DNA of 64,000 bases, from assembly GCA_047967505.1 (NCBI GenBank), contig CM106538.1; one strand, 5' to 3'. Under the pieces are notes generated by a model. The model did not search any database, was not told the origin of the DNA, and saw only the letters and a program-made list of their open reading frames with translations. The translations under genes were made by a program, and so were the position numbers. Shown here piece after piece: positions 4,811 through 64,000 of the stretch. This DNA is from Dipteris shenzhenensis. Its lineage: Eukaryota. The number at the start of each line of letters is the position of its first letter. Position 1 is the stretch's first letter.

Positions 4811-4829
4811 ATTAATCGTTAGCATTTAG

Positions 4830-15850: not shown

Positions 15851-15871
15851 ATGTTTCCACATAGGTTCCAT
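12269..15871 (-). CDS. Copia polyprotein: CCHC knuckle, protease, integrase, RT, RNase H (premature stop before ADIFTK)
   Basis: CYYCGKPGHKENTC, WYVDSGASNHM, WHKRIGH, IHSDVW, RSDGGGEY, QMDVKNAFLHG, YVDDL, YTDADWAG. TAG replaces the expected Q in STEE*VADIFTK. The N-terminal Met codons come from antisense host LTR. Confidence 0.9.
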   Translation of the reverse strand: MEPMWKHAGRGRGRGRGRFGGCAGNQNQQQQQENQSYGRGRGSSRGRGSQRGRGSWQRNQQVNSSTECYYCGKPGHKENTCYKKQNDIKSGKLQQSNYASSSGHGDDRNEHLFVMQHMVNSMSGDAAACNDVWYVDSGASNHMTSHGEWFHHVRNLDKPGYVETGDDTVHPITQVGKVPLAMQDGKTKYLADVLHVPKITKNLVSVGQMVEQGLQVRFNPDGCFVEDMKNKCRLVAKGNKNGRMFTLDVDMPEVKAAMFAHGRGVIADIEIWHKRIGHVNIQRLKSMQTKNIVAGLPKFRVEGMQKVCEACQMGKQARHAFPKNAKVSRRPLEVIHSDVWTTKAASIGGCHYYVTFIDDYTRKVWIYFMKHKSEVFSHFKAFKAMVEKEKGVHIKVLRSDGGGEYFSEEFCEYLKEQGIQRKYSCRSTPQQNGVAERKNRHIAEVGRAILNEKNMPDYFWAEAVATAVYIMNRTPTAAVHGMMPEEMYTGQKPDISHLKVFGCIAYVHVPDEKRTKLDPKAEKCIFIGYAQHQKGYRCYNPSTRKMQVSRDVVFDEMSSWYAPTVMVGDADAGNGNAAINAEQQSQALSGPRESSTSGSNAWTGRLRSSESSHGSPDSVVQVSHKGKEKVDHAPVFDVPAGSSHVDGESSGSEMSLDEELGIPSVVTPGARKSRHDLKTPATDPVVRRSTRIKYPVDRLRYDGYTAHHYAYMVKVLEEPEPTCFEDAAGHKNWEAAMDEEMAALDANHTWDLMPLPHDKKAIGCKWVYKVKHNADGFVSRYKARLVAKGFAQTYGIDYEETFSPVARMATVRAVIAMAAAKGWSLHQMDVKNAFLHGDLQEEVYMMQPEGYEDNSHPDFVCRLRKALYGLKQAPRAWSDKIGQYLVTIGFQISNSDFSLYVKRTNRGIVLIVIYVDDLIITGDSDADINEVKLLLKQKFEMKDLGELRYFLGIEVIRSPSGIWLLQRQYGLDMLSKYGMTGCKPISVPLEQNVKLNAESGELLEDITMYRRIVGSLIYMTITRPDLSYAVGLVSQFMQAPRKPHLDAARRILRYVKSTLHYGLFYEAGCALQVHGYTDADWAGSVSDRRSTSGFMFSLGSGAISWSSKKQPTVALSSTEAEYRGAAMAACEVAWLQKLLGDMGQSVHAAVVIHCDNISSIMLANNPVYHARTKHIEVHYHFVREKVLAGEIDLVYVSTEE

Positions 15872-15917
15872 CCACCTTAGAGAGATCCTTAGATCCTGAG
15901 GCACACATGTTTTCTCA

Positions 15918-39609: not shown

Positions 39610-40559
39610 ACGAACAATCTATTTAAAAGAGAATAATGATGAAAAGATCCGATGAAGGGTAGTAAGAAATGCTCAACTTGCAGTTCTGCATGTGATATTG
39701 TATAAAACATTAGGAGACCAGATCTTACAAAAGCGCTCACAATGCTCAGATGTCTTGTGAGATGTCTTTTGATCTTGTTTCTAGATAGAGCACAAGGTGT
39801 AGATGATGTCAAGCTAGATGCCCACAAGGGACATTGCTGGTTGGATTGAGATCTTTTGAGGTGGAAATCTAAGTTTGCAGGTGGAGATATTGTGATCATG
39901 TCCATATATTTGGGCAACGGTTACCCGAAGTTCCTTAATGAGAGCATCTAGGCATTCAGCCATGCGTGGCCCTTTGTATGAGCTCGTTGCCATAATCACA
40001 CTCTATTATCTTTGCCAAGAGATGGACTTGACTTTATATGTTTTTTTTTAAACCAATAGTTGAGAGGCTGAACTTAATCCCTTGGTGTAGTTTTTTAATG
40101 GTTTGCATTGCTGATTTTTTGTTCTGTTTTATTGCATATTTTGTTCCAAAAAGAGGGTTCTCCCTCGTGGTTGTAGGGGAATAGTGGACATTCTATAGGC
40201 ACTCTCCTCGTCTACATCATTCATTGCTAGTTCCAATAGGAAATTCTGGGTTGCATCTATCAAATGCTTTGGCATTGCCAATTCAAGAAGAATTTAATCA
40301 CTCTTATTACTACTTGCTTATAACTCCACATGCAAGCGCATGTGTGTGCACACATATGGTGTTTAAATTCCCAACTTGAAATAAGATTATCTCGACGGTG
40401 CTCTAAAAACTAGAGTATGGTGCACACTCCATAAGGGTGTGTTGCTGGGTTTTCACCCCATGCCTGATTCAAAGTAGATATAGCTGTTTCTCCCATGGTG
40501 CTAGCGGTCTCTCACATCTCCTGTTCCTCTAGGTGCTAGCAATTTCTGTTCCTCTAGGT

Positions 40560-41490
40560 GCTAGCATCTAGGCTCACAATTGATGTGAGCCTAGGTATTT
40601 GTCTCTGGGTGGGCCCTGCCTTTGGTCTTCGGAACCAGCCTCTGGTGTCCGTGCTCCACCCTGAATGTAGAAACTTTGCTCTTGATTGCTTATGCTTCCT
40701 GCAGCTAGCTTCCCGAGTTTGGCAAGGAATCTTGTCGGCTGTCATGCTCTGTAGTCTACTGGTGTATCCGACTACTCTCTTCATTTTGGGAAGTTCCTAG
40801 GGAAAATGCCTAGTCTCCAAGAGGAGAAAAGAGTATGTTGTAGTTCTTGGACCCTTGGGAAATTGCTCCAAATTTGTTTCCAGACTTCTTTCAGCTCGTT
40901 TCAAGCATCCAATAAGAGGCTGTTTCCCTAGGCCTCAACCCTACATAGCCGCACGACGTGACACATGTATCAAATAAGCATTATCTTCAATTGCCAACAC
41001 CATATGCCAGACAATCTACACAAGTTGAGAAGCATAGAATTGGCGCCTTCTTGCCTCTCTTCTTTTCTCCCTCCATTTATGCGATCAGTGATTGGAGAAA
41101 AACTCAATCAAAGGTAATTCAACTTATTCACAACCTCCACCTGTTTGCCCTTGGAGAAGAATATCGAATAGTGTCCATGTGAATCTCAACTAGGATGACC
41201 TTTGTCTTGTTTGCATTCACTCTAAGCCCACTGTGTTGGCAACATTACTCCAAGGAATGCATATTTTTCCTGCCTTATATCTTGGAGCACGAGGAAAGAT
41301 TTACATTATCCACATACAGTAGGAGCATGATGATTGTCTGCCCGTTCAAGGGATCAGAAGTCCAGTCTTGCTGAGGATATCCCATTAACCTTTGTTCCAG
41401 TTTAGGCCAAACAGACTGGGAGAGAGTGGGCAGCCTTGCTTGACCCCAGTGTTGGCCGACCTGGCAGTGTATTTGCTTGACCCCCTATTT
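40560..41490 (-). mobile_element. LINE (RTE/L1-type) reverse transcriptase fragment within the last intron
   Basis: GVKQGCPLSPSLFGL and LLYVDNV motifs, degraded. Confidence 0.75.
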
Positions 41491-41784
41491 GCAATTGTAA
41501 TAAGATATAGGACAGTGGCAAGTGATTTACAACCAAACATGAAAGAGAAGCAAACGAAGCAACCACGATAAATTACAGGGAGACAGTGACTGAAAATGCA
41601 GAGACAATTTTTTATAGAAAGGGTAGTGAAAGGCGGATCGAATAGAGAAAAGGGAAGATAAAAGATAGACTTGCTCATTTTCCTTTTCTTGTGTGGGGGA
41701 CAAGTGTTTGTGAAGCTTGCTTGGCTTTAAACATTAGAGATGTATGTCATCTTTGAAGCTCTTTTGTTGAACTAACACATGCAG

Positions 41785-41805
41785 GTATTTGTGGAGCCAC
41801 ATTAG
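41785..41805 (+). CDS. TRAPPC13: TRAPPC13-like terminal coding exon (VFVEPH*)
   Basis: CTAAC branch point and GCAG acceptor. Gives ..TE|VFVEPH*, matching the E(I/V)FV(E/D) ending of the family. Confidence 0.7.
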   Translation, partial: VFVEPH

Positions 41806-42899
41806 CAGTCAATAAGCACTGTGCTCACAGCAACATTCAGATCTTCAATAATATGAGTGTTCTGTGTCTCAAAGGTCAGGCTTTTTGTCAAGTGACGCCC
41901 ACCTGGAGCCTTGAGAGTTATTACTGGTCTGGTCTTTCTTACAATGTGCCATACTTCGAAGCTGTACCGAATTGTTGGATCACTCCCTGTTTAGTTTGTT
42001 GATGAATCAAGTCTCATCTGTACATCACAAGGGGAAACAGCATGATTCCCATCAAATATTTGACTGCAGGAGTTCCAATGAAGTTTGCTCTGGCAGTCTA
42101 ATTTATCTCGGATCTTTATAGTCCAACATGGACGCTAAAAGTCTACCAAATGGCTGGGTTAGAAATGAGGTTCTTGGGTCTTGAAAAGGGATATTTTTTG
42201 GACCTTACATCCATATGAACACTGAGCACATATAAAACATGTAAATTTTGTTCTTTAAGGCAATCATATACCATTATTAATTTTTAACAAAGCTTAATGC
42301 AACCACCATTTCTTGTTCACTTTCATTTTTGAGATCTTGTTCTCAGACATTCAAAAACTGATTCCTTGCTGTGAAGAACTTTAAAGAGCTGATTGCGCAC
42401 ATTACCATGATTGATTTCTTACTGCGGCTGGAAGTGACACGTGTAAATCTTGCATAGATTCCCTTGGATGTTTTCTTTTGGGGTGATTTAATGTTGTCTT
42501 TCAAGACTTATACTTGGGAAATAATAAAAAATGTTGACTGAATCACTTAGTCTGAATGTGTTTATCTCCAGGTGGCTGCCCTAAGAGGGAGGAAAGGGAG
42601 AGAAGAAGGGTCAAGGGAGGGGCGTAAGCAGAGGGAGTAGGAGAGTGCGGATGTGGGAATAGTAGAGGGTCTGATTTCTGAATGTTGGAAAGGGAGAGAA
42701 GAAGGGGCAGAGAGAGGGATGTAAGCAGAGGGAGTAGGAGAGTGAGGACATGGGAATCGTAGAGGGTCTGTATTCCAATGATTTCTGAATTTTGGATAAT
42801 AGGGGAGGTTTGCGCCCTTTTGGTGCACCCCATTTTCCAATTTGAGTTCTGTAAGAAAACATTTCACTTCGAAAGACAAAACATGTTTTTAAGAACCCC

Positions 42900-43690
42900 A
42901 ACAATTGATGACTTGTTGCAAGTCCGAGACAGCTTTGAAAGAGCTTGGGGATGTGTGTCAGGAGGTGTGTAGTTTGGCATTGTAGCAGGTATGTAGGTCA
43001 TGATGAAAGTGGACATATATGACCCATAGGGTGGTGGTGGGATGTCTCGTGGGGACTTTTGGGGGGGGAGGGGGGAGTGCGAGTAAGATATGGTAAAAGC
43101 AGGAACGCATGATCTGTTCTTGGTGGTGGGTCTAACATATAGAAGTCTGAAATGATGCAAAGCAGGGGGACCCCACAAGATAATCCACCAAGTTGGACCC
43201 TCCTCTACTTGGAAAGTAAGTTAAACGTTTGGACAAAGTCCGTCTCTCCATACCATTGTAGATAAAGATAACTAGGCCATCAATGAAACCCAACTCTAAG
43301 AGCGAAGTATTATTGCTATTGATTTTCGTAAACCTAGATGCTGAGTATGTTATGTATGAGTGTCCCTTGATGGTAGGCATTGTAGAAAGAAAGCCATTCA
43401 ACTTGGCCTGCATCTCTCTGGTGCAGGCATTGAAGTCTCCTACTAGCAGTAAGTATTTACTGTGGAAGAGGGTGCGGTAAGGATGGGAGTCTCTCTTTTG
43501 AGCCAAAGCTTTTACATATTTAGATGTGGCCAACAATAAATGCAAAACTGTGATGTGCAACACCAATGAAGGTGTCAATGGTATGCTAAGTCAGACGAAT
43601 GGCATGATGTTGGTTTCATGACCTTAACCACCCCTCGCACATGAACAAAAAGAGTTAGCCAACCCCTCCAAACTTTTGACACAACTATTC
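42900..43690 (-). mobile_element. LINE AP-endonuclease fragment
   Basis: LLVGDFNA, LTYFPSRGGSNLVDYL motifs. Confidence 0.78.
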
Positions 43691-44069
43691 TCCAAAAGGC
43701 CCACTTGCAGCGATCCCTATATTGCAATTAGTTCATTGTAAGGACTCGTTGCTTTGGTACTTTGGTGGGCCTTTGTGTAGTGTACAATCTCTCTACCTAT
43801 GTAGGCGTGAGCAAAGCTACTTGGCGTTGACGTAGGGCTATCATTGCAATTTCACTTTGCTGTGTGAGTGCCTTGGACATGATATTGTCACGTTGTTGGC
43901 TGTCCATAATGTCAACCTTGCTTCCTCTGTAAACAACTATTTTGCTCTTTCCCTTGGCCTTGTTTTGTGCTTGTTTTTTGGTGCTGGAGATGCATTTTGG
44001 TCAAGCCTTCATTCATACAAAATTGAGTGCTCTTTAAATTGGAGGACAAAGCAGCATTACAATTCTGTT

Positions 44070-44669
44070 TAATCTTACATGGGAGGCACATGGAAGGGGT
44101 TTTTGGACAAAAAATCCTCAAAACTGTCTCGGCATGGTTTGCCAATCGGTGTAGATAGGGCAAGAGACTTGAGTGAAGAATTGTATCCATGCAATCCCCC
44201 ATTAAAGTGGGTGGGATAATGTACGTGTTAGTGGGATTTTGATCCATCTTCTTTGCATTGTCATCCGCAAACAACGTTGTCAAAGGGTCAAAGTGTTGCC
44301 AATCGATGTTGGCCAAGCACTTCCAAACTTGGGCTTCGCACGCCCTTGTCCTCTTCCTACATTTGTGGCGTGTGTGGTACATTTATCCTGGCTATACCCA
44401 AACACAAAGAAGGGTGTGTAGCTAGTGGCTTGGCGACATTCTCCCTTTAGCAGGCCCAACAATGTCTGTAGATTGTCCTGTTGTACCGAGCTCCAAATAG
44501 CTACATCAAACTGCCTCACCACCTCATGTAGGAACTTGGCCACACCAGGTCTTAACAGGACCCAGTGGTCTAACGCCTTGGCCAACAAGGCACCCTGAGT
44601 CTTCAGCCTCCTATGCAGCAACACCCCGTTCAAATAAAAAATCAGCAGCTTCCTCGAAGTTAGGGGCAA
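44070..44669 (-). pseudogene. FCP1/NIF-family HAD phosphatase domain (frameshifted)
   Basis: KLLIFYLNGVL (DLNG motif I with D>Y), LRPGVAKFL..FDVAIWSS, SQDKCT, then in the shifted frame TLFADDNAKK..NP. Confidence 0.8.
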
Positions 44670-44750
44670 CTATTCATAGCCACAAGCTCAATGAGATTAC
44701 AACAGTGCAAATATTGCATAAGGAAAAACCAAATTGTACGTAGTTGAATT

Positions 44751-45700
44751 TCAACAAACATTCATGCAGATGTCAAACTTGAATCCATACTCTGCCTCTT
44801 CTTCCCCTCCCTCTGTGGTGACGCACAAGACTCTCCGCCCTTCTTGCACTGCGGGTTCTGCCAAATCTCGGCACCCTGCATTGCAATGGAGGTGCGTGTC
44901 TCCATGTTCTGATGAGAAGGCCTGTAACAACCTCGCCCAAAACAATCGTCCAAAACATTCGTTGCATGCCACCTACCATAACACTAAAAATCAATGCAAG
45001 CCTGGCTTGTGTTTCGAACTTTGCCAAATCTATTACACAATTGCTAAGCAGTACCTCGCACGGAGATATCATTCGCATCGCGCACCCATTCCGCGATGCT
45101 GATCTCATCCTCCACGAAGTCATCCAAGGGGGTGGCCCTATGCTCCTTACCTTGGTGCATGTACACCATTACATGCATCACGTAGACCTACATATAACAC
45201 ATACATGAACAAATCAGAATATGTGTAACATATGCATCATGTGATCATGTCTTGAAAAACCCTTTCATGATTACAGCACGTACCTCTCTTTTTCCCTGCA
45301 CACATATTGTGGTTTCTGAGTGCACCACCTACGAGCAAAAAAACATCCACTTCTGGCGTCCTGTTTCTTCACATAGACACGTATCCTTTGAAGTTCTCGT
45401 AATTTCGCTCGTTTCGTAGTGAACTTCTTGCTTGGAATGGATTGTATATAACAACCCGCCATTTCGGTGGAATGTGCTCGGTGGATGTCTCCATGCACAT
45501 AGACATCTCACATGCAACATCAAGATGCCTCTCTCAGACCTCCTCGTCCCTAGCTGCGTTCAAGAAACTCACAGTTACAAGTTTCTCAACAACGGATTAT
45601 TGATTTGCATGGATCCTGTTTCTTCTAGGCCCTACTTACAAGTGGATTGTTTGCATTCTCTTGGTAGGTCCTCGTTCTCTTTGCATCCACCTGATGCTTT
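44751..45700 (-). pseudogene. Degenerate beta-class N4/N6 DNA methyltransferase-like segment
   Basis: RLLQAFSSEHGDTHLHCNAGCRDLAEPAVQEGRRVLCV parallels the LI..FS..GD.VLD.F.GSG....A....GR...G.E SAM-binding end. WRVVIYNPF upstream (45432-45462) lies where catalytic motif IV would be. Both motifs are imperfect. Confidence 0.5.
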
Positions 45701-46099
45701 TATGTTTGCAGTTGTGGCCACATCAACTATGGCTGTAGGAGCTAATGAAATTTATGTTTTAGAATGTTGTTTAGAACAATAATTAAAAAACAAAGGAGCA
45801 TGCTACTTGTGTTTTTGGGTTGGATGTGTGGACGCAGTTGTACCCCCATCTGCAATAGTGGATTGAGGGCCAACTGGCAGCGGTCCCACTTGATTACTTT
45901 GTGTCGGTAATTCGTCAAGCGCTTGCCTTGCTGCATCTAGGAATTCTGCCACACGAAGCTCCTCCACACCTTGATCTCCACATTGAGCTTTTCCCCCTGC
46001 AGCTCCTGTTCGGGTGCTTCCAACTTGTGCAGCAGCCAGTGGCTCTGTTTCTGCATACATTGCCAATTATTTGAGGCCCCTAAAAAAAATTAAAAACAA

Positions 46100-49000
46100 C
46101 GTTCATGCGACTCTTAATCCAACTCGATTTTTATCACAATCTTGTCTCGTTCCAAGTCTATTGGGTTTATCAGGCCTCCTGATCTTTTTTTCTGCCCCCT
46201 CGTTCTTTCAATCACTTTGTTGCCCGCTCTAGTAGATGTAGGCGCCCTCACCTTGCTTGCTTCACTTTCCGGTAGCGTAGAGTCCTTTGTAAGTACATAA
46301 AATAACTTGGAAGAGAAATATTTTGGGGGAGACTTGAGTTTGTACATACCATCATTGCAGGCTTTTGTGGTTCTTCGGGCCCCCTTACTTTGTTATACAT
46401 CATGTACATTTCTTTCTCCTCACGTGGGTGCTCCCCTTCAGGATAATCCAAGAATAGCGGGCACTTCTTGTACACTTCCTTCGGCCACTTTTGATCCAAC
46501 TGGAACTCCTCATACATTGATGTGTCCGGATCATTTATCGTGGCCCAATCCTCGCATCGCTCGGCAAATGGCTTACGGCTCGGTTTGCCACTTCTACAGA
46601 CATGAAACTGGCACATCCAAAAGGCTGAGCCCACCAGGTTAGTCTCTCCACTATGAAACACAAACACATCTCACAAAAAAACATGTGTCATCAAAGCATA
46701 CCGATACACATACCTCCAGTGAGAGCTTTGCACCTTCCTGGGCTGTCAAGGTAGTACCAGGCTTGAAATTTTTGTGGACCCGCATGAAGAGGTGCTCGCT
46801 ATGTTTCACTTGGTTTCCTACGTGTGTTTGAAGAACTTATTCTCGTCGCACTCAATTGAGTAGAAATTTCTCCAGCGCCGTAAAATGTGGAGTCCTACTT
46901 CATGCATCTTGGACCACACTGTCTCCCATCTCAACCAGGTCCTGAAAACCACACCTCCATCTATAGAAAAGCACCCAAAACAAGTGTTCATCAAAAGAGC
47001 AATGACAACATGATTCAAAAGCAAATAAGCCTATTCATCATGGGTTTAGGGTGTGCTGAAGCATACGCTCAGGAATGCCCATCATGACACGCATCCCCTT
47101 GTCATCGCTTGTCAGAGCTTCCATAGACCTTACTTTATCGTCCTCGGTCAACCTCGACGTTGCAAGGCTATATAGCCTCTCTTCATTGATCGCCCCTGGG
47201 GGGCTTTATCCCCAAGTCTAGAGTGGTGACAATCCTACAAATCGAAGTGGTTTCAAAAAACAATCACTTCGTATGCAAGCTTGTCATCTAATTGTTTTCC
47301 TTCCACATGTAATCTCCACAATTCACTTACTTGTACCATCTTGCCCCTAGTGCAGGGTCAGCCAACTTCAAGAGTTGACACATACGCTTCAGCTTGTCGT
47401 TCACAGTGTAGTATGCTTCGCTCCATTTCTTTCGAAAGTCAACATCCGACAACTCGCTGCAACTATGCATGACTGGATGCAAGTGTTTGTCATACGTGTC
47501 ATTCGTTGCCTTGTCATCAAACATATTGCAATAACTAAAGAAGGAAAGGGAAAAGTGTCTCGTTATTGATCCTTACCTTCCACATCACCTATGTGATTAT
47601 TAGAAGAGGGTTTTTGTACCAATGAACTTTCATAGCTGCCTTCTTCCTGTGGGCGTCTAGCCACTCTTTCTGCTCAGTTGACAATCTTCGGTGAGTTGCC
47701 ACATCTGATATAGCACCCAACACTCTGGCCTTGCAAATGAGGTTCAAAAAAGTGGAGGTGACAATGTTCTGTGCTAGCCTAGCGTCAAAAGCAACATATT
47801 AAACGATCCTCCAGTGAGGGTGAGGCAGCTAAAGACACAGTGCATTCATTAGGAATCATCGAACTCACCTATTCGTCCTTGATAACACAAACAATAACTC
47901 TCCTTCATCTTCTGAGGGCACCTCCACTAAATGGCATTGGACGCGTATATGCCGGTGCTCGTCATTAGGAAAGGCTGTCACTCAAAAGAAAAAGAAGAAT
48001 TCATGAGTTGAAAACAAATGAAACGTGGCTACTAATGTTGAATCACCCAAATCAATGGACTACAATACTTACATGTCCTTATCTCGGTCATCCACCCTAT
48101 GTGGCCATGGTTCCCATCCCAAATGTAAAATAAGGAATTGGACAAGAACGCCCACTCTGTGTTCCTAATTTCTTCCTCAAATTCTTCGTGCTTCTGGAGC
48201 CACAGTGTGCATTCCACTCCCTTTTCACATCCTCGTCCACGTCTCTCTTCTGCATCTTTGGTGTGGAGGTGAGCACGATGAGGACACCCAAACCCAGCAA
48301 GTACCCACTTGAGAAGAATGTTTCCTGCATCTCTTGGGTACGGGATGTGATCTGGCAGATAGTGGGCATTGGGAGCAATCGACACAAGGGGATCGAAGGC
48401 AGAGGGATTATTTTTTCCACCTTGAAAGGAATTTTTTTTAAAAAAGCCCAAACATTCGTTCTCACTCCGTGCCTTGAGATTATAGACCTTGAAAAGACCG
48501 AACTACTCACAGTGAATGTTTGTAGCTGGTCCTCAATGCACTCCCACACGATTTTCTTGTTGCAGGAGGCACTCAGTGCGGTCTCTCCAAGGATACCCTC
48601 CTCGTCATCGTCCTCAGACTCCTCTCTAGCCAGTCACTTTGGTGCATGTTGACCTCAACCTTTGCTACGTTGCCCCCGGGAAGAGGGTGTGCTCACACTT
48701 TTACTACATCCTTTGGAATCCCGCTTAGAAGCGCTGATGGTAGCCCTAACAGATGTTGCCAAGGCTCCGTGGAGTTACGAGGATAGGCCTCCCATCGATG
48801 ATGCACTGATAACAGTCTGCACGTTCAAGGGATCGAGCCAAATTTTCCTTCTTCATCTACCTCCCCCTTGTGTTAACGTAGCACCCCTGAGACCATGCAG
48901 TCTTCCTCTCGCAGAAGTTGCGCCCCCCGTCGGAGGCATGTCCTCATCATCGAGCTGGGCTATATCATCAAGTCTCTATTCACAAAAATTGGTAAAATGG

Positions 49001-49370
49001 GTTCAAGAAAATCCAACAAAGCCCACTCTAAGCTCATGCAAAGGAAGGACATGATAGAAGAGCTCACCACTTATTCAATGGGCCACACAAGTAACGCGTT
49101 CTCTTTGAGGTCCACTTCAGCCCCATCCTTGTTGATTCCTTTAAACAGGGCCTTATCATACATGCACGAAATGATGACACCAACATCGCCAAATCGAATG
49201 CCTTCCGACTCATGTGTCTGCCTGAGCCACGGGATCGTATTTGTCATCATACAAGATGACGATGTCATCTCACTTGAATGCGGGTGATGCCATTCTTGCT
49301 AGGATGCGGATTGAGGATACGGTACAAAGTTAGGGTTTGCAAGACCTACATTCATGGCACAAAAACCCTC
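46100..49370 (-). pseudogene. Spliced gene relic with a ParB/Srx-like domain
   Basis: IPLCRLLPMPT..FFSSGY..W..FEEEI..FYIWDGNHGHIGW (48101-48130; DGNHR-type motif). Minus-strand GTAAG donors near 48078, 47575, 47330 and 45150. Confidence 0.6.
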
Positions 49371-49395
49371 ATGATAGAGGCCTTTCTCGGGCACG

Positions 49396-49400
49396 GAGAG

Positions 49401-49470
<70 letters not shown>
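49396..49470. repeat. (GA)n microsatellite
   Basis: Directly visible; lies just upstream of the minus-strand gene. Confidence 0.97.
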
Positions 49471-49473
<3 letters not shown>

Positions 49474-49667
49474 CCTTGATAGCTCACTCACAAAGTGAGT
49501 ATCATTGGGAGGTGTAGCTTTTCCCAAAAGCATGTTTTTTTTGTTTTTTTAAAAGCTTGTTATTAAAAAAAACTTTTTTGGCTCCACCAAACATGGCCCG
49601 TTTTTAAACAATTTTTCTTTTAAAAAAAGTTTTTTTTTAATAAAAATTTTGTAAATAATTTTTTTAA

Positions 49668-49872
49668 AAATCTCCAAAAAAAGGGTGAAGTTGGCACCCA
49701 GAGGAGGGCACCGGTGCCCTGCTCTAGGCACCAACTTCACCCTTTTTTTGGAGATTTATTTGTTTAAAAAAAATTCTAAAGTTTAAAATTTTTTAAAATA
49801 AAAATAACAAAAAAAAGGGCAAAGTTGGCGCCCTGCTGTGGGCGTCAACTTTGCCCTTTTTTTTGTTATTTT
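49668..49872. repeat. Two adjacent related hairpins
   Basis: 27-bp perfect arms 49668-49694 / 49731-49757 around the palindrome AGGGCACCGGTGCCCT; 33-bp arms 49801-49833 / 49840-49872 with one mismatch. Confidence 0.95.
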
Positions 49873-51009
49873 CATCCCAAATTTGCTTTTCAGAAAAGTC
49901 CAAAAATGAAATAATTTGCACTAATTTTTTTACCCCCTAGCAAAGATCGTCCTTTTTGAGGGCCTTCCACTCCGAATTTGGCCAATGTTCCAAAAAGTAA
50001 TCTTTTTGAAATTTGTGCGAGATCTTGTTATGCCGTCGATTTTCCTTAAAAAAGTTTGGAAATCGGAGTTGCTACGAAAAAGTTATGGCTGTTTTACTCT
50101 TTGGCAAAAATTCTATGTAATTTTTACTAGTTTTTATGTTTTTCTATAGGCTTGCTTGCCTTTCACATGAATCATCTATACTTTCTAACTGTTGCATAAT
50201 TGCGATTCTATGCCAAAAGCCAAGATGCTCATTCTTTGGGGGTTTTTAAAAGCTTTTATTGTTTTTTGGGGTGGAGGTGGGGGGTATAGCTGTTTTTTAA
50301 AATATTTGACAACAAACAATTACAAAAAATGGCATCTTCACCCTTACACCTATTCTTGCATTAAATACTCATAGAATGCTATTTGTCAGACATCAACTAT
50401 ATAAAGACCCCCCCCCACACACACACACACACATCTCTCTCAAGCTCTCATTCTCTCTCAACTCCTCCTCCATACCCTAGCTCTTTGTCCGTCTCTCTCC
50501 CCCCCCCATCTTACACCTCTCTCTCTCCCTGGGGCGCCAACTCCCTTTAGTTAAAAACCTATCAAAATCTTGAGTATGATATGAATTTAACAGTATGCCA
50601 TGAGTAGAAAGTATTCAAATTAACATGGTTGTGTTCTACACTTAAAGAGCTTCAAATATGTCTTTACACCTTAAAATTTGGGCAGCACATAAAGAGGTTA
50701 CATTAATTTGAAAGGATATGGGTTTTCATAATTTAGTGTATTTTTTGTTCCCCCCCCCTCATCCAAAAGACCCCCCCCCTTGGGCCTCACATATTATGAA
50801 AAATATGTACAAATCTTAAAATCTTGCATATTTTTCAACATATATACCTTATATTTTGTGGGAGGGGGGACATGGAATTTTCATATTTTTTCCTTGCATA
50901 TTTGAAAATTTTAAAGGAAATCCATGCATATTATACAATGGACCTTGTCCCCCCATACCCTAGATTTTTTATGACGATATTAACATATTACATATTGAGT
51001 TGGTGTCCC

Positions 51010-51048
<39 letters not shown>

Positions 51049-51050
<2 letters not shown>

Positions 51051-51790
51051 TGGCCGGCCCAACTGGTGTAGAGTCTAGCAACCTCAACAAAGTGCAGATC
51101 TATTTGAACTCCCTCTCGTCGGAGCCAATGATATGATATGCAAATGGTGGAACCATTGTGCTAAGTGAAAATGACCCCGTGATAGGCAAGGGCATTCGTG
51201 TGATGGCCATCACACATGTAAATAGCCACCTGCAGAGTATGCAAGTGGAAGCCATTCAAGCGGGTGGATTGGGGCAGTTGTACATGCTGGACACGTAGTT
51301 ATCACGTGACTATGTGCTCGAGAGAGGAAAGAGTGCACCTGCCCACACTCCACCCACAATAGATCTCACCCAAAGTCTAGCCAATTTGAGGCAGAGACCA
51401 TGCGAGTTGGACCCATCATTCCGAGCACAAGGGAAGGCAGACATTGCACAAGCTACACCCACAATAGATCTCACGGCTAGCCCAAGAAGCATGAGCTTGA
51501 GGCCAAGTTCAAGCCATGTTGAACAACCATTAGGAGGCCATGGCATGGTACTGATCGATGATGACAATGATACAATAGCTGCAATGGAGGATCCTCAAGC
51601 AGTCATTAGCATGTTGTCGTACATCAAGTCTTCTAGGGGACGTCATCGATTGCTTCATGAACTGTTGTACAATTCAACCATAGTGGAGAAGTTGATGGAA
51701 GTTCCGACAATGTACAACGGAAACGTTGTGTTAAAATTGCTGCCCATGCCACATGGAGCGAGTGCAATGGATGGAGTTAAAGGGTTATAT
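51049..51790 (+). pseudogene. 5' part of a putative transposase-associated gene (MULE/SWIM-like family)
   Basis: ATG follows a (CT)n tract; VPTMYNGNVVLKLLP..MDG pattern recalled from repeated TE-like proteins of non-seed plants. Truncated. Confidence 0.4.
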
Positions 51791-52961
51791 TGCAATGGTA
51801 TATTATATTTAGCATCAAGCAAGTCATTCGGTCAACAGTTATCGGGTCACCTTTATAAATATTGATGTGAATACGGTTTTTGGAAACACGAATACAATGA
51901 ATGATCATGTGAGCATGTAATCATGACATACAAAACCCTAACTATGCTAGTGGTCTAGCCGCACTATGTCCATGAAGTCAAGTCTAAATAAACTTTGTGA
52001 GATGCACAAGACCATCATTTTGTCATGGGCGAGGAAATTTTTTGACTCTTTCTTCAAACTAAATGATGAAAGAGTGTGTAAGAGGTAGAGTCGACCCCTG
52101 TAGTGATTTAGCCCTTTGGGTATACTACAAATTTTAAAATATGAGAATGATCTAGGAATACAGAGGGGCTATATTTATGGTGGCATGTGGTAGAGTACGC
52201 ACATAAAAGAGAATACTTTTATTGGAGTCAAATATACAATAGAACCTTTATTAAAAGGAATAAAAGTGCTATCTTCTAAAATCCAATGACTCCTAGCACA
52301 TTCTTAAAAGTGATTCCTCCCCTTGCTTTGATGGCCTTAAAAGTCCTTACCTTATCCCACACTCTATTAGCCCACCACTTTTGTTCTTCTTGGTTCTACT
52401 TTCCTTCCACTTTTTTGATTCTTAATTGAAAAGTACTATTGCTTGGCTCAAACTCAAAAGGAAATGTGTCACTATAACATATACGCTTTTGACTTGGGTC
52501 TTTCTCTTTCTCAAGCTTTGACATTCATTGTGTGTGTTTGTTTAGAATATTCAAGCAACATCTTGCTCTTGATTGGCCTAACCCATATTTTTCTAGGTCC
52601 ATATTAAAATTTAAATCTTGAGTGTTCAATCTTTGCATCAAATCATAAAAGCTTTTTACTTCCATCCTTGCATTCGGTGTGTGTATTTGTGTAGAATATT
52701 GAAGAAACATCTTACTCTTGATTGGGCTAAGTTTGCACATAGTGTAAATCTTAAGTGTTTGAATTGCATAGCCTTTTACTTTGATCCTTTTCTTTTGTCA
52801 CTCTTTTGTTATTGGAGAAACTTTGAGCCTAGGGGTGTGACATATTGAGGTCTACGAATATTTAAGAAAAAACAATTTTGTGTTAAGGGACTAGGATTGA
52901 ACCCACACACATGCGCACAACTAGCAGAGCGAAAGAGAGATGTGTTGTCATGACCGAGTTG

Positions 52962-52966
<5 letters not shown>

Positions 52967-53032
<66 letters not shown>
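52967..53032. repeat. (GA)n microsatellite
   Basis: Directly visible. Confidence 0.97.
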
Positions 53033-53034
<2 letters not shown>

Positions 53035-53368
53035 TGTGCTGGGGGATACCTGTTGAGTGAGAGAAGGGGCTACATGGAAAGAGAGAGGGGGCTTGGGATG
53101 AGATGAGGCCGCAGATGGAGGAATTATAGAGCCCAGAAACGAGGTTGGAGGCTTACATAGCCCAACCTTGGATACACCACCAGCATGGAGGTGTGATTCA
53201 CAGTAGGAATTACGTGTAGACTTGCAATGCCAATGCTTTTCCAATCTGCACGCAACTTGGATGCTTATTAAATTATGCAACTAGCTGAGCCTAGCAGCGA
53301 CTCTCCTTGCCACCACCCTCATTTCATAAGCTCGAGAAGCGGAGGGAAGTTGAAAAACAGCGGCGGCG

Positions 53369-54558
53369 ATGAATGCGAGAACGAATGCGAGTGTTGACAT
53401 GCCTACTTATTATACTGTGGGGTTGGCCTCCTTGCAGCTGCCTAGATCTCTTGTAGCAACCCTCATGGCAGCGCTCTACACCTTCTCCCTCTTTTTAACC
53501 TCTAGTTGGGGATGGGCACCCAATATCGAACCTCGACTGTTTGCCAGCGTGACAACAACTTTCTTGCCATTGCTCCAAGTTTCTAGGAGTATTAGGCATG
53601 TCATGGAAGCAGAGATCTTGTGACGGCACATCTTTAAAATTTTGCAATTGAACTCATGAGTTTGACACCCTACTTATATTGAAGTGCTGCAAGCATCCAG
53701 TGTTCCCACGAGTATGGTCTACGATCGTCAGTGATCAAAGCATGAAGGAATTGAACCCTCTTGAAATATGGCAGAAATGTTGCCACCTTGAACCACATTA
53801 CAAACTATTGAACCAGCCTTACAACAACAAACCGTCGAGTCTCAAGTGAGTTGGAGTTTTTGGAAACTCTCCTTGGAAGGCAAACACACGCTGTTTGTTC
53901 CAGGATTGGCTCCCAAGCACAAGCAATTGTGCTTCCTATACCACAAGATGTTCAAAATGCTCATCATTGGCCTACAAGCTGTTGGCAACGTGTTGGGCAT
54001 CGTGGAAATATGGATGGCACAACATCAGGACTTCAGTTCTATGGAAGCCATCACCGCATATGTGAGCATTTTGATGATTATCTTTGCAACCCTGAATTGG
54101 TTTGGATGCAGTCACTATCAAAGCCCTCTACTAATCCACACAAATCCTACCCAATTCTCACATTGGATTTCCTCCCAAAGACCCAACGTTCCTCAGCCTT
54201 CAGAGAGGATATCATTGGTGTTATTGCATTGGGTTCTATTGCTGCTATCTTTAGTTCCACGCTCTACTATGGTATGTACTACATGATGATTGGAAAGCAC
54301 CGGTGCACCCTGTGTTTCCTGGCAGCTCTCCTCTTATAGCTTGGGCAAAACTTATTGTTGGTAGCTACACTCACATTGGAAGAAGTTTTGGATGTGTCTC
54401 GACATTGGTGTCTCGGCTGCCTAGTTTTGTTAATGGGTCCGTTGTTCGTTATGAGAAGCATCATTATTGCTATGATAGGAACGATCACAGGATGGCACAA
54501 TTTTAATGAAGCATCCACATCCTTCTCTAAGTGGATCATACCCCATGTATTAGCATGA
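53369..54558 (+). pseudogene. Intronless relic of a multi-pass membrane protein, family unknown
   Basis: Successive overlapping ORFs with hydrophobic helices, interrupted by frameshifts and stops. Confidence 0.35.
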
Positions 54559-55527
54559 TACCACTCTAGTTCTCAACACCATTAGGCTCCTCTTTCAATT
54601 TTAAAGATCTATTACTTCACCCCAACTTTAAAGGAAGTGCTTCCATCCAAGTGTGCACTTTATGTTAGAAAGCACTTGTAGTAGACCACTAATGAGTGAG
54701 TTTCTAGTTATGTAGCTTGAGCACATAAAAAGCATTCACTTTGGTACATCCACATCCAATTCAAGCTCACTTTGACCCTCTTATAAATTTAAGATATTGA
54801 GTTTTACACACACATAAAGGGTGTCTTATCACATCTTGCCTAATTTAATGGCTAAAACCATAAAGGATCGATTATGAATGAAAGCATTCAAGTGTGATAA
54901 TAACATATTCATTGTTAAGGCAAGTTTACATCCAACTACTCTAGCAAATTATAGTTACCTCTATCCGACAGTATGGATAGGAAGATGACAGAATGAAAAA
55001 ATGGTATTTCTAATAAATTATAATCCTTCCACTCCTTCATTAGGTGGCATAAACATCCCTACTCACTTTCATTGAAATGTCCAAACTCCACCTATCTCAA
55101 GAAGTAGATAGAGCAATATAAGTATGAGATTGAAAGTTAGAGATCTCGAGAGATAAGCTTGTAAGAATCACCGGGAGGCTGCTGTTAGCCAGACCGTAGA
55201 GCAAACACTTTGTTAATGTGTAGAGATAGATTTTTTATCCAAGGATCTTTGTTGTGTTTGTATCTGCTCATCTTTTATTAGAGCTTCTCCTTTGTGTTCT
55301 AGTTGCCCACCTTGCTATATATATAAGTATATATATATATATACAAAACACTGAAGAGGCACATAAGTCTCTATTTTGCTAATATCTTGGTTCAATGAAT
55401 AGCTCTATTTGTTAAGGTAATACATGCCATGGCAATGTCCATGGATGTTTGAAGCATGAATGGTGGGACTAAGACACGAGCAATGCTTGAGTTTTGAGTC
55501 AAGTTAGACTTTTGTCAAGTTGCTTAG

Positions 55528-55659
55528 GGTATTTTCCATGTTGGGTATTGCTTATAATGCTCTCTTTGCTACCATTTTTCCACACTTTCATAGGTATTTT
55601 CCATGTTGGGTATTGCTTATAATGCTCTCTTTGCTACCATTTTTCCACACTTTCATAGC
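55528..55659 (+). repeat. Perfect ~65-bp tandem duplication
   Basis: GGTATTTTCCATGTTGGG...CACACTTTCATAG occurs twice. Confidence 0.95.
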
Positions 55660-56220
55660 TGTGGATTCTGAAAACGTTGCCTCCACGATGGGTGCACACA
55701 TCTTGTTCTAGTTCCTACACAAGATTGTGGAGTCATTGCTAGCTTTGAGGGAGCCAATGGAGCCATGGATGATTATTGTAGCATAATCCAAGATATTATT
55801 AATGGTCTTCCCTCTCTCCCACAACAACCCTCTACCAATAGACCTCCCAAAATGGTGCTCAAATTTTTGTCCTTCCTAGACTATGGGAATTGCCACAAAG
55901 ATTTGGATACCCATTTCTACACATAGGGCACATTTTTTGGTTGAGAGTGCTCATACTTTGGTGCATGTGTTTATTTGCAACGCCTATGTACTTCATTGAA
56001 GGATCTTTTTGTCATAGTTTGTCTCTTTTTTCTTGTCATTTTACCACGGTCTCACTTCTACCTCCTCATTTCAATTATATAATGAGCTAAAATTTCTCCC
56101 GATTGTTATTCATGGGGATCACTTTTGTCCTCCCACTTTCCAATATTATCCATTAACTTAAATCATTTCTATAATTGTACTCATTTGTGCATATCCACAC
56201 AATAACAAGATTTAATTAAA

Positions 56221-59413: not shown

Positions 59414-61007
59414 CATTCTTCCATTTCAAGGCTTGTGCAGAATGCATCGATTGCTCATTTGGGTTGCTAGCTTCATGCAACCCATGGATTGGTACATCAG
59501 TTGGATGCTAATGAAGAGTTCTTGGTCACCAGTTTTCCTTCCAACCCTGTAGTGTAGTGTGAATTTGTAGTGTACCAACATGCAATTGCGAAGGCTTCAC
59601 ACAACATCTGTCACACAAGGTCCATTTGAGCCTTGCAAGCATATGTTCTTTCTCTACATTCATGTGTTAGACTACATGATGATACACCAACCACACCTAA
59701 CATTAATAAAGGTTTTCTAGCTATTGCCTTAGGATTGATAGTGCACATAGTTCGGGGATGTTTTTAACCTTTGATAATAAATGCTATGCGGTTGTAGTTT
59801 TGGGATTATATCTATCAAGAATTGTAGTCCTCAAAATAATTATCTTAATGGATCAAAGAAATTGATGGTGGAACATGAAAGCACATGGGTTCATTTAAAC
59901 ATTGCACCCTTAACCACACTCAAGAGAGGGACCTTGTAACTTTGTTTGAACATTTGATTGCAATAGACTACATGGATTGTAAGTTTGATGATTGCAATTG
60001 CTATCACCAATGATGTTTGACTCTTTTTTTAAAAAAACCTATCAAACTCACTATAAAGAAACTCGTCGAAAAACCACCCCCTAATCAAAACTAGGATATC
60101 ATTAACTGAGGCAAGAGAATTTCCTGCTTGATCTACTGGTGGTGGAGGAGCTACAACTCTAATTGCTACCCAACATGTATTGACAAGTGTAGGATGAGTA
60201 GCTGGTGGGACAGGTGGGTCATACACAGATGGTATTAGATGTGAAGGAGGTGCCAAGGGAAACTTTATCCAGGGGAAACTGCACTAGAAGATTGATTGCA
60301 TATTTCACACCGGGCTTCATTTCAATGTAGAATACAGAGGGATTGTACCCAATCAGTGTCTATAGAACTCAAACCCACTTGCCTACAATCAAATGTGATT
60401 TCATATTATCATCATCATTAGAAGGCTAGGAACAGGAATGGCTAACAGTTGAACAAGGAGGACTGGATAGCAATATGCTACAATGGCTACTGTTATTACT
60501 TGGATGTTGAGACACGGGCCAAATACAGGAAAGAGAATCCATGCTTCTATACAACATTCCAGGGCAGAAAAAACAAGATCGCCCACATTACAAGCAGCTT
60601 CACAAGGATGTGGCCACATCACATGGTCCACTCAAGTTTAGCCTCAATTCCTACCAAAATCACTTCGGTCATCATTCAAGAGATTGAGGACAAGCAGAAG
60701 GGGTCCCTTAGCAGTTCCCTACGCTGTTCATGTTTCATGGACAATTTGGAATTAGAAAGTCCTCATCTTGACCAATTCAAGAGTTTAGAGGACATAATCT
60801 CTATCAACGCAGTCAAGAGATCTCAGCTCACACTCCACCATGGAAAAGGTGGGTCCAAAGGCAGGATTCACAAGCCAGAGTGTCAAGAGTAAGAAGAAGG
60901 CAAAGGAAGCTACTTTGAAAATCTCCAATTGAATTTTAGTTACGTTTGTCACAAATATTTTACTTGGTTGATGAGCTCATCACCCAAGCTTCGTCTCGAC
61001 TGATAAG

Positions 61008-64000
61008 TGTTAGAAATCAAGAGGGAATGAATCACTCAAACCTCCACCCAAGATCTCTCCAACTCTTACACACACTTAACTCAGAAATAAATATGGACGG
61101 AGAGAGAGAGAGAGTATATTCATCCACCAGATGGTGGGCAAAAAAATAGCTCCAAGGGAGCAGTACAAAACACAGCAGACTACTGGAGAAAACTGATGGA
61201 CTCTCTCTCTCACAACCTGCTCTAGATCTGAGTGCTAAACACGGCCTTGGAGAGGGGCTTTCAATCTTGCACTAGATGCTAGAATGAATAGAGGAGTAGG
61301 CCTTTTATAGGCACTGCCCAGGCCCCTTGAGTTGACTAACCAGCAGGGTCGGTACCCTGTTTGGTGGCCAACCACATGGGCCCTAGAAAACCGACCAAGG
61401 TTGGCCTTGGTCGGTGGCCCTGGTTGGGCTGACTTGGCCTGCCACAGGCCCCTATATAAGGGTGCCTTGTGCAGCCATTTTGCGCTACTGCAGGAGCCTC
61501 CATGTGAGGCCTAAAGCCCTATTTTACCTGCTGTTGCAGGCTGCAACCAGCCCATGTGCTGGTTGCCTATGATGCCAACCTGAGTCTCTCTCTCTCTAGC
61601 CCTCCTACCTCTCACTACCCCTTGTCCCCTCAAATCAGGGGCTCACAGGTGGGCACAGTGAGTTTCTAACACCCCCCCTCAATGTCACAACTGTGGGCCA
61701 ATCCCCATTCGTTTGATGAGGTGCTCCATTTATTCTTGAGAAAGTGCCTTCGTGAAGAGGTCGAACAAGTTGTTAGCGGTCGGGCAGTACATAAGCTCAA
61801 TCACATCGTCGATGGTGAGCTCTCGAACAAAGTGGTAATGAACTTCGATTTGCTTGGTCCGCGCATGGTATACTGGATTCTTGGCAATGGCTATGTAACT
61901 TTGATTGTCACACATCAGCATTGTTGCGTCCTCCTAACATACGTCCATGTCCTCCAGAATCCACCTCAACCACAGTGTCTCACAAGTTGCTGTACATGCG
62001 GCTCGGTACTCTGCCTCTGTAGATGAAAGGGCCACTGTGGGTTGCTTCTTACTTAGCCAAGAGATGGCACTAGATGCAAGTAAGAAACAATACCCTGTTG
62101 TTGATCTCCTGGTGTCAGCATCACGCGCCCAATCACTGTCACAGAACCCGCCTAGTTCAATGCCTTTGGTATAGGTGATCTCGTAGGTGCAAGTACCCTT
62201 TAGATACCTCAGCACTCGTAAACCTGCATCCCAATGACTCTTCCTAGGAGAAGCTGAGAACTGGCATAATCGCCCAACTGCATAACAAATATCAGGTCGA
62301 GTATTGGTAAGGTCAACCAAACTTCCTACCAATTGTCAGTACAAAGGAGTATCGACCGGCTGAGATGTGTCGTGAACACTTAGCTTGAGCCCGACCTCCA
62401 TGGGAGTTACTGCTGTCCTGCAATCCTCCATCTGAAATCTCTTTAGAAGTTCTCTGCAATATTTCTCTGTGAAATGAAGATCCTGTCTTTGGCCTGCTTT
62501 ACTTCTATCCCAAGGAAGTAGTGTAATAACCCAAGGTCAGTCATCTCAAACTCAAACATGAGTAGCATCTTGACCTGAGAAATCTTCTTGACATGGTCAC
62601 CTGTCAAGATAAGATCATCAACATAGAGGATGAGTACCAATCGTAACCCCTTCTCAATGAACAAGTAGAGGTTTGCTTCAGAAGGGCTCCGACTTAGCCC
62701 TATCTTCAGAAAGAATGCATCAATCCTTTGGTACCAAGCTCTGGGGGCCTGTTTCAGCCTGTATAGCGCCTTCTTCAACCTGCAGACCTTTAATGGGGAC
62801 CTTGGATCTTGAAAGCCCGGTGGCTGCTCTACGTATACCTCCAGGGTTCCATTAAGGAATGCGGACTTCATGTCTATTTGAAAAATAGGCCACTGGAATT
62901 GGGCAGCAAGGTCAATCACTGTCCGGATAGTAACCATGCGAGCTGTGGGAGCAAAAGTTTCATCAAAATCCATGCCTTCAGTTTGAGCAAACCTTTGACT
63001 ACTAACCTTGCTTTATACTTATCCAAGCTGCTATCTGATTTGTATTTAAGTTTGTATACCCACTTAGTGCCGATGACTTTCCGTCGCGGGGACCTAGCCA
63101 CTAAGTCCCAGGTATTGTTCTTCAGGATAGCATCCATCTCTACTTGCATGGCAGCCTGCCATTCTGGATGGTCCTTTGCCTCCTCGAAGTCCTTGGCTCT
63201 TCAAGCTAAGCCACCAATGCAAAATTCATGGATGGGGTCTTCTGAAGACGTTGGGACCGTCGCAATCCGAAACTGCTACTCTCAGGTATTTCAGTGACCC
63301 GAGAGTCTTCCAATGTCTATAGGTACCGTTGGGGCAACCTCTTCTACTTCTCAGTGGGAGGAGGAACTGGAACTGCTTCTGGAACATCTTGCTCTTCCTC
63401 AGTACCTTGTGGAACATTAGCTTCCGATTTCACCACCTCTTGGATGGTCAAGCTGGGGCGGGGTGGGTTCGGGGGTTGAAAAATCTCCTCCTCCTCAATC
63501 TGAGGCTCCTCCTGGGGTTTAGGTTCCTTTTCCTCGAAGACAACATCCCGATTGATAAGGATCTGCTTCTTTACTGGGTCGAAGAGTCGATAGGCCTTGG
63601 ATTCTTCGCTATACCCAACAAAGATACATTTTCTGCTCTAAGAATCAAGCTTGGTCCTGTCTTCCTTGTGCACATGCGCCCATGCATTAGAACCAAAAAT
63701 GTGAAGAGAGTGATAGAGGGCTTCTTACCATAAAATGCCTCATATGGAATCGTGTCCTTGATGGCCTTCGTCTTGGTCCTATTGAGAATGTGTATGGCTG
63801 TGTTGATTGCTTCACTCCAATAGGCTTTAGAAATGTTCCTACCTTGGAGCATAGCAAGCCCTGTCTCTGTGGTGGTTCTATGCTTCCTCTCGGCTACCCT
63901 GTTTTGCTGAGAAGTATGTGTTGTGGTGAGTTGTCGCTTGATCCCATGCTTGCAACAAAATGTGTTGAACTCATTTGAGGTGAATTCTCCCCCCCTGTCT
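61008..64000 (-). mobile_element. Ty1/copia element (3' LTR 61008-61671, PPT, RNase H/RT/integrase), runs off the window end
   Basis: TGTTAGAAA..TTTCTAACA termini; C7 PPT at 61672-61678; FCDSDWA, YVDDL, KQAPRAW, YWSEAINTA motifs with frameshifts. Confidence 0.93.

Follow-up and report, generated by a model that had tools for sequence, protein, structure and literature searches.

A decayed locus of Dipteris shenzhenensis, probably a broken copy of one many-exon plant gene with ParB/sulfiredoxin-fold, methylase-like and NIF/FCP1-like domains

The window analyzed here is a stretch of 64,000 nucleotides of Dipteris shenzhenensis (GenBank assembly GCA_047967505.1, contig CM106538.1), given as one strand, 5' to 3'. 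Its minus strand carries, at about 44073-48633, what we read, at a probability of roughly 70%, as a broken copy of a single long plant gene of many exons, belonging to a multi-copy family of ferns and bryophytes. Stop-to-stop frames and three-frame reading resolved this span into a chain of short exons with GT..AG borders, and by tblastn the window is collinear, on one strand, with residues 161-1128 of P0017, a protein of 1176 residues from Adiantum capillus-veneris. Because of this collinearity, the three adjacent genes of the original prediction, which had been viewed as a cassette of separate genes, are treated as domains of one gene; their order on the minus strand (ParB, methylase, NIF) was confirmed. 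The parts of the gene, in the direction of transcription, are:

48512..48633, minus: acidic N-terminal exon (weak collinear match to P0017 161-200, E=0.36; GTGAGT donor)
48062..48450, minus: main ParB/sulfiredoxin (Srx) exon, 'IPLCRLLPMP ... WDGNHG' (tblastn, E=2e-14)
47868..47972, minus: exon completing the ParB/Srx domain with its last strand and helix (translation; GT/AG borders)
46350..47786, minus: middle region (all-helical), in exons that contain stops and change frame (tblastn to P0017)
45640..46080, minus: two putative exons with a low-complexity linker and a possible motif IV remnant (weak assignment)
45285..45555, minus: exon with the central methylase-like block including 'KWRVVIYNPF' (MAFFT alignment; frames read)
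44754..44972, minus: exon with the methylase-like motif X / I / II segment (tblastn to the C-terminal part of P0016)
44073..44669, minus: last exon or exons, broken NIF/FCP1-like HAD domain, stop codon near 44073 (Pfam, tblastn)

The tblastn correspondences on which the collinearity is based are:

48450-48062, minus: P0017 193-323
47771-47330, minus: P0017 358-485
47199-46404, minus, three pieces: P0017 ~495-693
44927-44787, minus: methylase-like segment
44654-44143, minus: P0017 954-1128

The acidic N-terminal exon is the furthest upstream part supported by collinearity, and the exon at 47868-47972 corresponds to the part of P0018 and P0022 that follows the WDGNHR helix. In the middle region, P0017 358-429 matches 47771-47571 and 430-485 matches 47494-47330 (E=2e-7), with further matches at 47199-47101 (E=0.002), 46949-46905 (E=0.001) and 46553-46404 (E=1.8e-8). 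For the region 45640-46080, the sole match is non-significant but collinear (P0024 against 45679-45446, E=3.7).

The copy in the window is a dead, non-functional pseudogene, as had been predicted. It contains at least two frameshifts within domains and several stop codons. In the ParB exon, the frame changes from -2 to -1 between 48211 and 48205 (P0017 193-274 was matched in frame -2, 276-323 in frame -1), and in the NIF part from -3 to -2 between 44379 and 44289 (P0017 954-1049 corresponds to 44654-44379, 1080-1128 to 44289-44143); an additional shift near 44140, read by eye, is likely in the NIF part. Further stops and frame changes were read in the middle region and in the methylase-like exons, with an in-frame stop and a frame change both falling in the exon 45285-45555. 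The signature reads WDGNHG where the family has WDGNHR, an exchange of Arg for Gly, and the position of the NIF nucleophile is occupied by Tyr.

For the ParB/Srx part, the spliced WDGNH exon (P0001; 48074-48421, minus, with GT..AG borders) was searched against 1.84 billion representative proteins, yielding 11 relatives at E<=0.001. These are short (68-120 residues), stem from short contigs (ENA/Logan, 553-2078 bp), and match only query residues 66-116; their similarity ends at the GTAAGT donor of the window, which suggests a shared intron position. A profile of these fragments (A1) led to 10 longer proteins. Adiantum capillus-veneris supplies two (P0016, 532 aa, partial; P0017, 1176 aa), A. 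nelumboides and the liverwort Riccia sorocarpa three each, and 2 others complete the set; in the databases the family is named only as 'hypothetical protein' or 'FCP1 homology domain'. In the family alignments A1 and A2, WDGNHR is nearly invariant. In the ParB/sulfiredoxin superfamily, the pocket motif ends in an Arg after the central strand (GxxR or DGxHR type). Word-based protein searches with the single ParB exon and with the NIF exon returned nothing among longer proteins, the A1 profile found no relevant match in the PDB, and a literature search for the string WDGNHR or DGNHR returned unrelated papers only.

The fold was assessed on the relative P0022, not on the broken copy of the window, using an AlphaFold model built from a 23-row alignment, with a predicted local distance difference test score (pLDDT) of 80-93 over about residues 150-280. 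Foldseek found no match to this model in the PDB at E<=0.001; ranks 1-30, at E-values of 0.08-1.4, were all sulfiredoxin, ParB, Noc, KorB, PadC or ParB-fold serine kinase. VIA-align placed the model on Noc, ParB and KorB N-domains with Z-scores of 8.0-8.8 and root-mean-square deviations of 2.3-3.0 over 92-105 residues, and all 29 of the 29 entries listed belong to the ParB/sulfiredoxin superfamily. The nearest Pfam hint for this part was DndB (E=0.23). We therefore accept the ParB/Srx fold, as modelled, and the pocket motif, without assigning the proteins to any named Pfam family; the spliced ParB-like gene of the original prediction is supported in its splicing and in the predicted fold of its family. 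A further match of P0022 in the window, at 60509-60628 (E=0.002), was rejected as chance, since the open reading frame (ORF) there lacks the ParB signature.

The NIF/FCP1 HAD domain was likewise predicted correctly: PF03031 was the one Pfam match among ten window frames scanned (44283-44669, minus; E=6e-7, 29.7 bits against a cut-off of 21.8). The C-terminal NIF domain of P0017 matches more strongly (E=2.4e-12, 47.2 bits), and P0017 is the only one of the longer relatives in which Pfam found a domain. The nucleophile/acid pair of NIF/FCP1-type HAD phosphatases has the form DxDx(T/V); the corresponding position reads Y-L-N-G in the window and D-V-N-G in P0017.

Between these two domains, four weak, concordant lines of evidence point to a beta-class methylase-like domain, which is probably inactive, as judged from its motifs. 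The window segment 'GD...AGC...GRR' (44927-44787) aligns in frame with the C-terminal part of P0016 (E=5.3e-5, 36% identity over 47 residues) and, by tblastn, with P0017 (E=3e-4); by this alignment it is a true homologue of the motif X/I/II segment, with a degenerate S-adenosylmethionine (SAM) loop region. Of the four lines, two are matches of the methylase model PF01555: it matched the C-terminal part of P0016 (E=0.26, 11.7 bits, profile positions 166-216 of 221) and was the sole Pfam match of an exon of a related metagenome locus, L001 (E=0.021, 15.2 bits, positions 163-194). In the ESM Atlas, P0016 residues 409-510 lie beside PF01555 clusters (feature score 0.93), and the ten best named matches of the segment fall into one family or clan, ten PF01555 clusters with structure TM scores of 0.70-0.75 over residues 411-510. 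The family profile A4, searched against the PDB, matched DpnA (5hek at E=0.0096, 5hfj at E=0.015) and M.RsrI (two sequences, E=0.053), and the best 4 of the 6 listed sequences are beta-class DNA methylases; the 548-residue ORF of a second related locus, L081, found no match in the PDB by phmmer.

L081 and L001, the most complete copies, share the beta-class order, with a motif-IV-like block, 'LL-x-DG-x-L-h-h-F', 'KW-h-h-h-N-x-L-P-L', a variable stretch and motif X/I/II. The catalytic motif IV of beta-class enzymes is (D/N/S)-P-P-(Y/F/W), and motif I, the glycine-rich SAM loop, is F-x-G-x-G. In the family, the motif-IV-like loop is DVPED (L081), DIPEN (L001), NVPSN, NVPGN or DVPRN (other loci) and DMPTG (P0024), and never (D/N/S)PP(Y/F). 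As SAM loop, Adiantum has AGCG, L001 and L081 have ASTG, other loci have TST and the window has AGCR; the window has no recognizable motif IV. The string 'VVIYNPF' at about 45427-45447, previously assigned as motif IV-like, aligns in MAFFT with the later block KW-h-h-h-N-x-L-P-L, and the motif-IV-like block of the family lies about 70 residues upstream of it; of the proposed beta-class amino-methylase motif order, the domain and its GD...GRR part thus stand, while the motif IV assignment falls. A second frame at 44770-44983, 'VLDDCFGRG', is more motif I-like and was dropped, since it is with the other frame that the Adiantum proteins align. On the plus strand, the 'VVIYNPF' codons read, in reverse complement, '...IVYNNPPFRW...', an NPPF methylase motif of textbook form within an open frame of 119 residues (45423-45782). 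As no homologue supports that strand, this NPPF (about 45427-45450) is taken as a coincidence, one that could mislead a motif scan.

Taken as a whole, the full protein would comprise an acidic N-terminus, a ParB/sulfiredoxin-fold domain, a long all-helical middle, and a beta-class (N6_N4-type) methylase-like domain, to which a NIF/FCP1-like HAD domain would have been added at the end in the Adiantum protein and in the window. The middle was predicted as all-helical in an AlphaFold model of P0024 (916 aa, 92-row alignment, mean pLDDT 51.9), which is confident only in the ParB core and in the helical part around residues 340-500 (pLDDT 70-92). Foldseek returned no PDB match with a probability above 0.14 for this model, and none for its middle region.

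Several observations weigh against this reading. In the ParB part, no ParBc match was found with the Pfam ParB models up to E=10 in 20 sequences carrying this part, and a VIA Z-score of about 8 lies in the middling range of that tool. For the methylase-like domain, both PF01555 scores lie below the gathering cut-off of 26.7 bits, Pfam matched neither the window's own methylase exons nor anything relevant in the long ORF of L081, the N-terminal half of the domain has a pLDDT below 50 in the P0024 model, and no line of evidence is significant by itself. The probable inactivity of the domain is read from general motif rules, by which its catalytic motifs are degenerate in all members examined. 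The NIF domain is attached only in P0017 and in the window, and P0017 is a gene prediction that could be a fusion of neighbouring genes. In L001 and L081, the methylase-like domain is followed only by a basic tail, with which the gene ends, and NIF is absent; co-occurrence of all three domains in other copies was accordingly found in P0017 and not in L001 or L081.

The breadth of the family was gauged by scanning metagenome contigs for the pattern WDGNH, which gave 157 matches, of which 135 were confirmed as relatives; 80 loci were kept, forming 43 distinct groups. As the search pattern itself fixes the signature in the loci found, its conservation there is not independent evidence. In 54 of the 80 loci, queries with fern and liverwort domains found the ParB part; the middle region was found in 1 locus, and neither the methylase-like nor the NIF part in any. 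In tblastx, the window shares the ParB exon alone with the metagenome loci (22 segments in 11 loci). Conserved frames follow the ParB exon in the same order across many loci, and a Pfam scan of the conserved ORFs returned nothing relevant. L001 looks largely intact, as does L081 with its ATG-started ParB exon and open exon of 548 residues. L081 (4178 bases, interrupted by introns) is filed under an uncultured cyanobacterial assembly. It was the sole match among prokaryote genomes, has spliceosomal-type interruptions, and shares with the metagenome locus L003 an exon and the adjoining intron in almost identical form; most probably a plant-like contig was here binned with a bacterial genome by mistake. 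In Adiantum, two paralogues lie on different very large contigs and share 91% identity across 272 residues and 82% across another 185.

On either side of the gene, the window is eukaryotic and plant-like and contains several Ty1/copia elements. The gene sits among copia and long interspersed nuclear element (LINE) debris, with LINE debris directly downstream (41388-41726, RVT_1 at E=0.0066). Upstream of it, the following features were noted:

49403..49470: (GA)n microsatellite, CT on the minus strand, upstream of the gene
49668..49757 and 49798..49875: two related near-perfect palindromes (inverted-repeat search)
51012..51865, plus: (CT)17 at 51012-51045, then an ATG at 51053; frame broken over three frames

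The palindromes are the two large hairpins that had been reported. The first has arms of 45 nucleotides (91% complementary) and the second arms of 36 nucleotides (94%); the DNA fold z-score is -14.1, and a shared core of 19 nucleotides has 4 matches in the window against 0 expected, all confined to the hairpin arms. They could form a small foldback element. The plus-strand frame had been described as a transposase-like ORF led by a (CT)n tract. The tract before the ATG is present; the transposase likeness gained no support from Pfam or the Atlas, where the longest plus-strand ORF (51299-51865) had no Pfam match and a best score of 0.77 with low recognition (1960), and the ORF matched none of the ORFs of related loci. 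A CT tract at each gene start had been proposed as well, and both the (GA)n microsatellite and (CT)17 are in place; because CT tracts are common in the window (others lie at 7.8-8.6 kb and 52.96-53.03 kb), this is weak evidence.

Some features of the surroundings are recorded in their own right. Within ORF 51299-51865, a direct repeat of 30 nucleotides (plus strand, 51340-51369 and 51445-51474, 87% identical) codes for a pair of 'T-P-(P/T)-I-D-L-T' peptides, after which comes an acidic 'LIDDDND' run; these resemble SUMO-interaction motifs. One Ty1/copia gag-pol frame (12272-15955, minus) is uninterrupted over 1228 aa (RVT_2 at E=6e-81, rve, gag_pre-integrs), which suggests a young, possibly active element; more copia fragments lie at 19206-22344, 26001-26714 and 61937-63999. 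At 4816-6007 (plus), two open frames (162 aa, with a 'DFGENC' motif, and 124 aa) had no Pfam match and may be part of an unclassified transposable element. Among the metagenome loci, an element recorded as ORF cluster 5, of about 0.8-0.9 kb, recurs in both orientations around and once inside loci (L044, L059, L016, L027, L026 and others), and probably represents a small transposable element of that host without relation to the family. Conserved Cys/His-rich ORFs lie on the minus strand in four loci (L066, 2997-5791; L069, 2636-4895; L023, 4528-5323; L026, 156-1000), 4.5-5.3 kb upstream of the ParB exon, from which they diverge, and were absent from the other long loci; they had no Pfam match and no relation to the plus-strand ORF of the window, and could represent a linked gene or an unrelated neighbouring repeat.

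We consider it unlikely that the gene is the cargo of a mobile DNA element, or such an element itself, with a dead copy in the window. The family is strongly multi-copy, with its 135 confirmed relatives and, in Adiantum, paralogues on different contigs, and the window locus is embedded in transposon-rich DNA. Three metagenome loci (L049, L051, L061) share a collinear unit of about 7.2-8.6 kb with a common right-hand end, and their identity is even (75-83%, mostly 78-83%) across the coding part and across about 4 kb 3' of it without a convincing ORF, a pattern that looks like neutrally decaying repeats; the minus-strand ORFs upstream of the ParB exon in L066, L069, L023 and L026, which are unexplained, could also be read in this sense. 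Against it, Pfam and ORF checks of the window and related loci revealed no transposase, integrase or reverse transcriptase in or beside the unit. Of 61 inverted repeats in window 40000-56000, the 25 longest consist of microsatellite pairs and the two hairpins described above, reading by eye revealed no obvious inverted repeat at the ends of the unit of about 8 kb in L049, L051 and L061, a target-site duplication was not identified, and no second copy of the gene lies within the window. The divergent ORF of the window is unrelated to the upstream ORFs of other loci, the ParB exon is all that the window has in common with the metagenome loci, and the conserved spliceosomal intron after the WDGNHR helix equally fits an ordinary nuclear gene family. 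Mobility is possible but unproven, and the DNA transposon originally proposed found no support in a transposase, in terminal inverted repeats beyond microsatellites, or in a second copy in the window.

There is a small chance that the locus is a working host gene, broken only by errors of assembly or sequencing: no domain is missing, their order is right, the GT..AG introns are plausible, and homopolymer runs lie near some of the shifts, for example at about 47200. At least two of the frameshifts, however, fall within contiguous homology, further frame changes and stops affect the middle region and the methylase-like exons, the most conserved signature residue is lost, Tyr replaces the NIF Asp nucleophile, and identity to Adiantum is 21-45%. 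Least probable of all is that an integrated giant virus or phage-like element left this relic. In its favour, large DNA viruses commonly carry ParB-like domains, DNA methylases and NIF-type phosphatases, and the nearest Atlas clusters of the methylase segment are largely viral; against it stand the many spliceosomal introns of the gene, the lack of any other virus-like gene near the locus, a scan of viral contigs that gave 11 pattern matches with 0 relatives, and a tblastn search of P0016 against 50,697 phage records that found nothing.

The intact proteins of the family are most likely DNA- or chromatin-binding factors, because the methylase catalytic and SAM loops and the NIF Asp pair are degenerate; for the same degeneracy, seen in all members examined, a DNA-modification cargo in the sense of a working enzyme is not upheld. 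We tentatively suggest, at somewhat less than even odds, that the methylase-like and NIF domains serve as binding modules and not as enzymes; the ParB/Srx pocket may still bind or hydrolyse nucleotide. A doubtful, further-reaching proposal is that this family of non-seed land plants, derived from a ParB-methylase fusion of bacteria or phages and with dozens of copies per genome, is either a selfish repeat of a new kind or a chromatin or genome-defence factor, and that a C-terminal-domain (CTD) phosphatase-like domain captured in ferns would provide coupling to RNA polymerase II. As a selfish repeat, its sole protein would be a DNA-binding factor composed of ParB/Srx and a pseudo-methylase; as a chromatin or defence factor, it would be fast-evolving, would occur in plants with swimming sperm, and would possibly be a sister of the Marchantia 4mC methylases. 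Should intact members be active, unusual DNA marks or DNA nicking in ferns and bryophytes could be candidate effects of theirs; as pseudo-enzymes, they would exemplify a prokaryotic modification module re-used as a DNA-binding scaffold. While the copy in the window is itself only a fossil, the family merits proper study.

ParB-methylase fusions are known in bacteria, plasmids and phages, and such methylases are known to have been taken over by eukaryotes, namely in algae, chytrids, rotifers and Marchantia. A multi-copy land-plant family combining ParB/Srx and methylase-like domains, with a NIF domain in ferns, was not encountered in the literature searches, nor was the fusion of NIF to a ParB-methylase-like protein; the family derived from ParB-methylases is, as far as these searches reach, undescribed. 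Its likeliest origin would be a ParB-methylase fusion, prokaryotic or phage, that an early land plant acquired, and the prokaryotic or phage ancestry suggested at the outset is plausible.

In bacteria, fusions of a methylase to a nicking ParB domain have been described, for example Bacillus cereus Bce_0392 (PMC5512222). With such prokaryotic and phage fusions, the plant family shares the order of an N-terminal ParB/Srx and a C-terminal beta-class N6_N4-type domain. The D-G-x-H-R pocket signature is likewise similar, by the general motif class. The plant family differs from these fusions in being eukaryotic and intron-rich, in a helical insert of about 350 residues between the domains, in its catalytic loop (DVPED, DIPEN, NVPSN or DMPTG) and degenerate SAM loop, and in the NIF domain added in ferns; the tblastn search with P0016 gave no sequence match to phage records.

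Eukaryotic methylases derived from phage ParB-Tls loci, and a ParB-HTH-Dam family of chlorophytes and chytrids, are described by Iyer et al. 2016 (PMC4738411), where the ParB-Tls and ParB-HTH-Dam families are reported in haptophytes, chlorophytes and chytrids and land plants are credited with few N6A methylases. These families are a precedent for the uptake of ParB-associated methylases by eukaryotes followed by lineage-specific expansion. By the description given there, they are set apart from the plant family, as their ParB part is a helix-turn-helix (HTH), whereas the plant family has the ParB/Srx N-domain.

The N4-cytosine methylases MpDN4MT1a/b of Marchantia have an intact TSPPY motif and are represented by an active enzyme (bioRxiv 10.1101/2021.02.12.428880), and the portion of that text at hand mentions no ParB domain. 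Both they and the present family, which also occurs in the liverwort Riccia, are of the prokaryote-type N4/N6 class, are found in non-seed land plants, and have the same permuted motif order. The Riccia members are set apart by DMPTG in place of TSPPY. Finally, compared with the HAD phosphatases of the NIF/FCP1/SCP type (PF03031), the threshold of the family model is passed by both the window and P0017, whereas the Asp pair site reads D-V-N-G in P0017 and Y-L-N-G in the window, and the domain is fused to a ParB-methylase-like protein.

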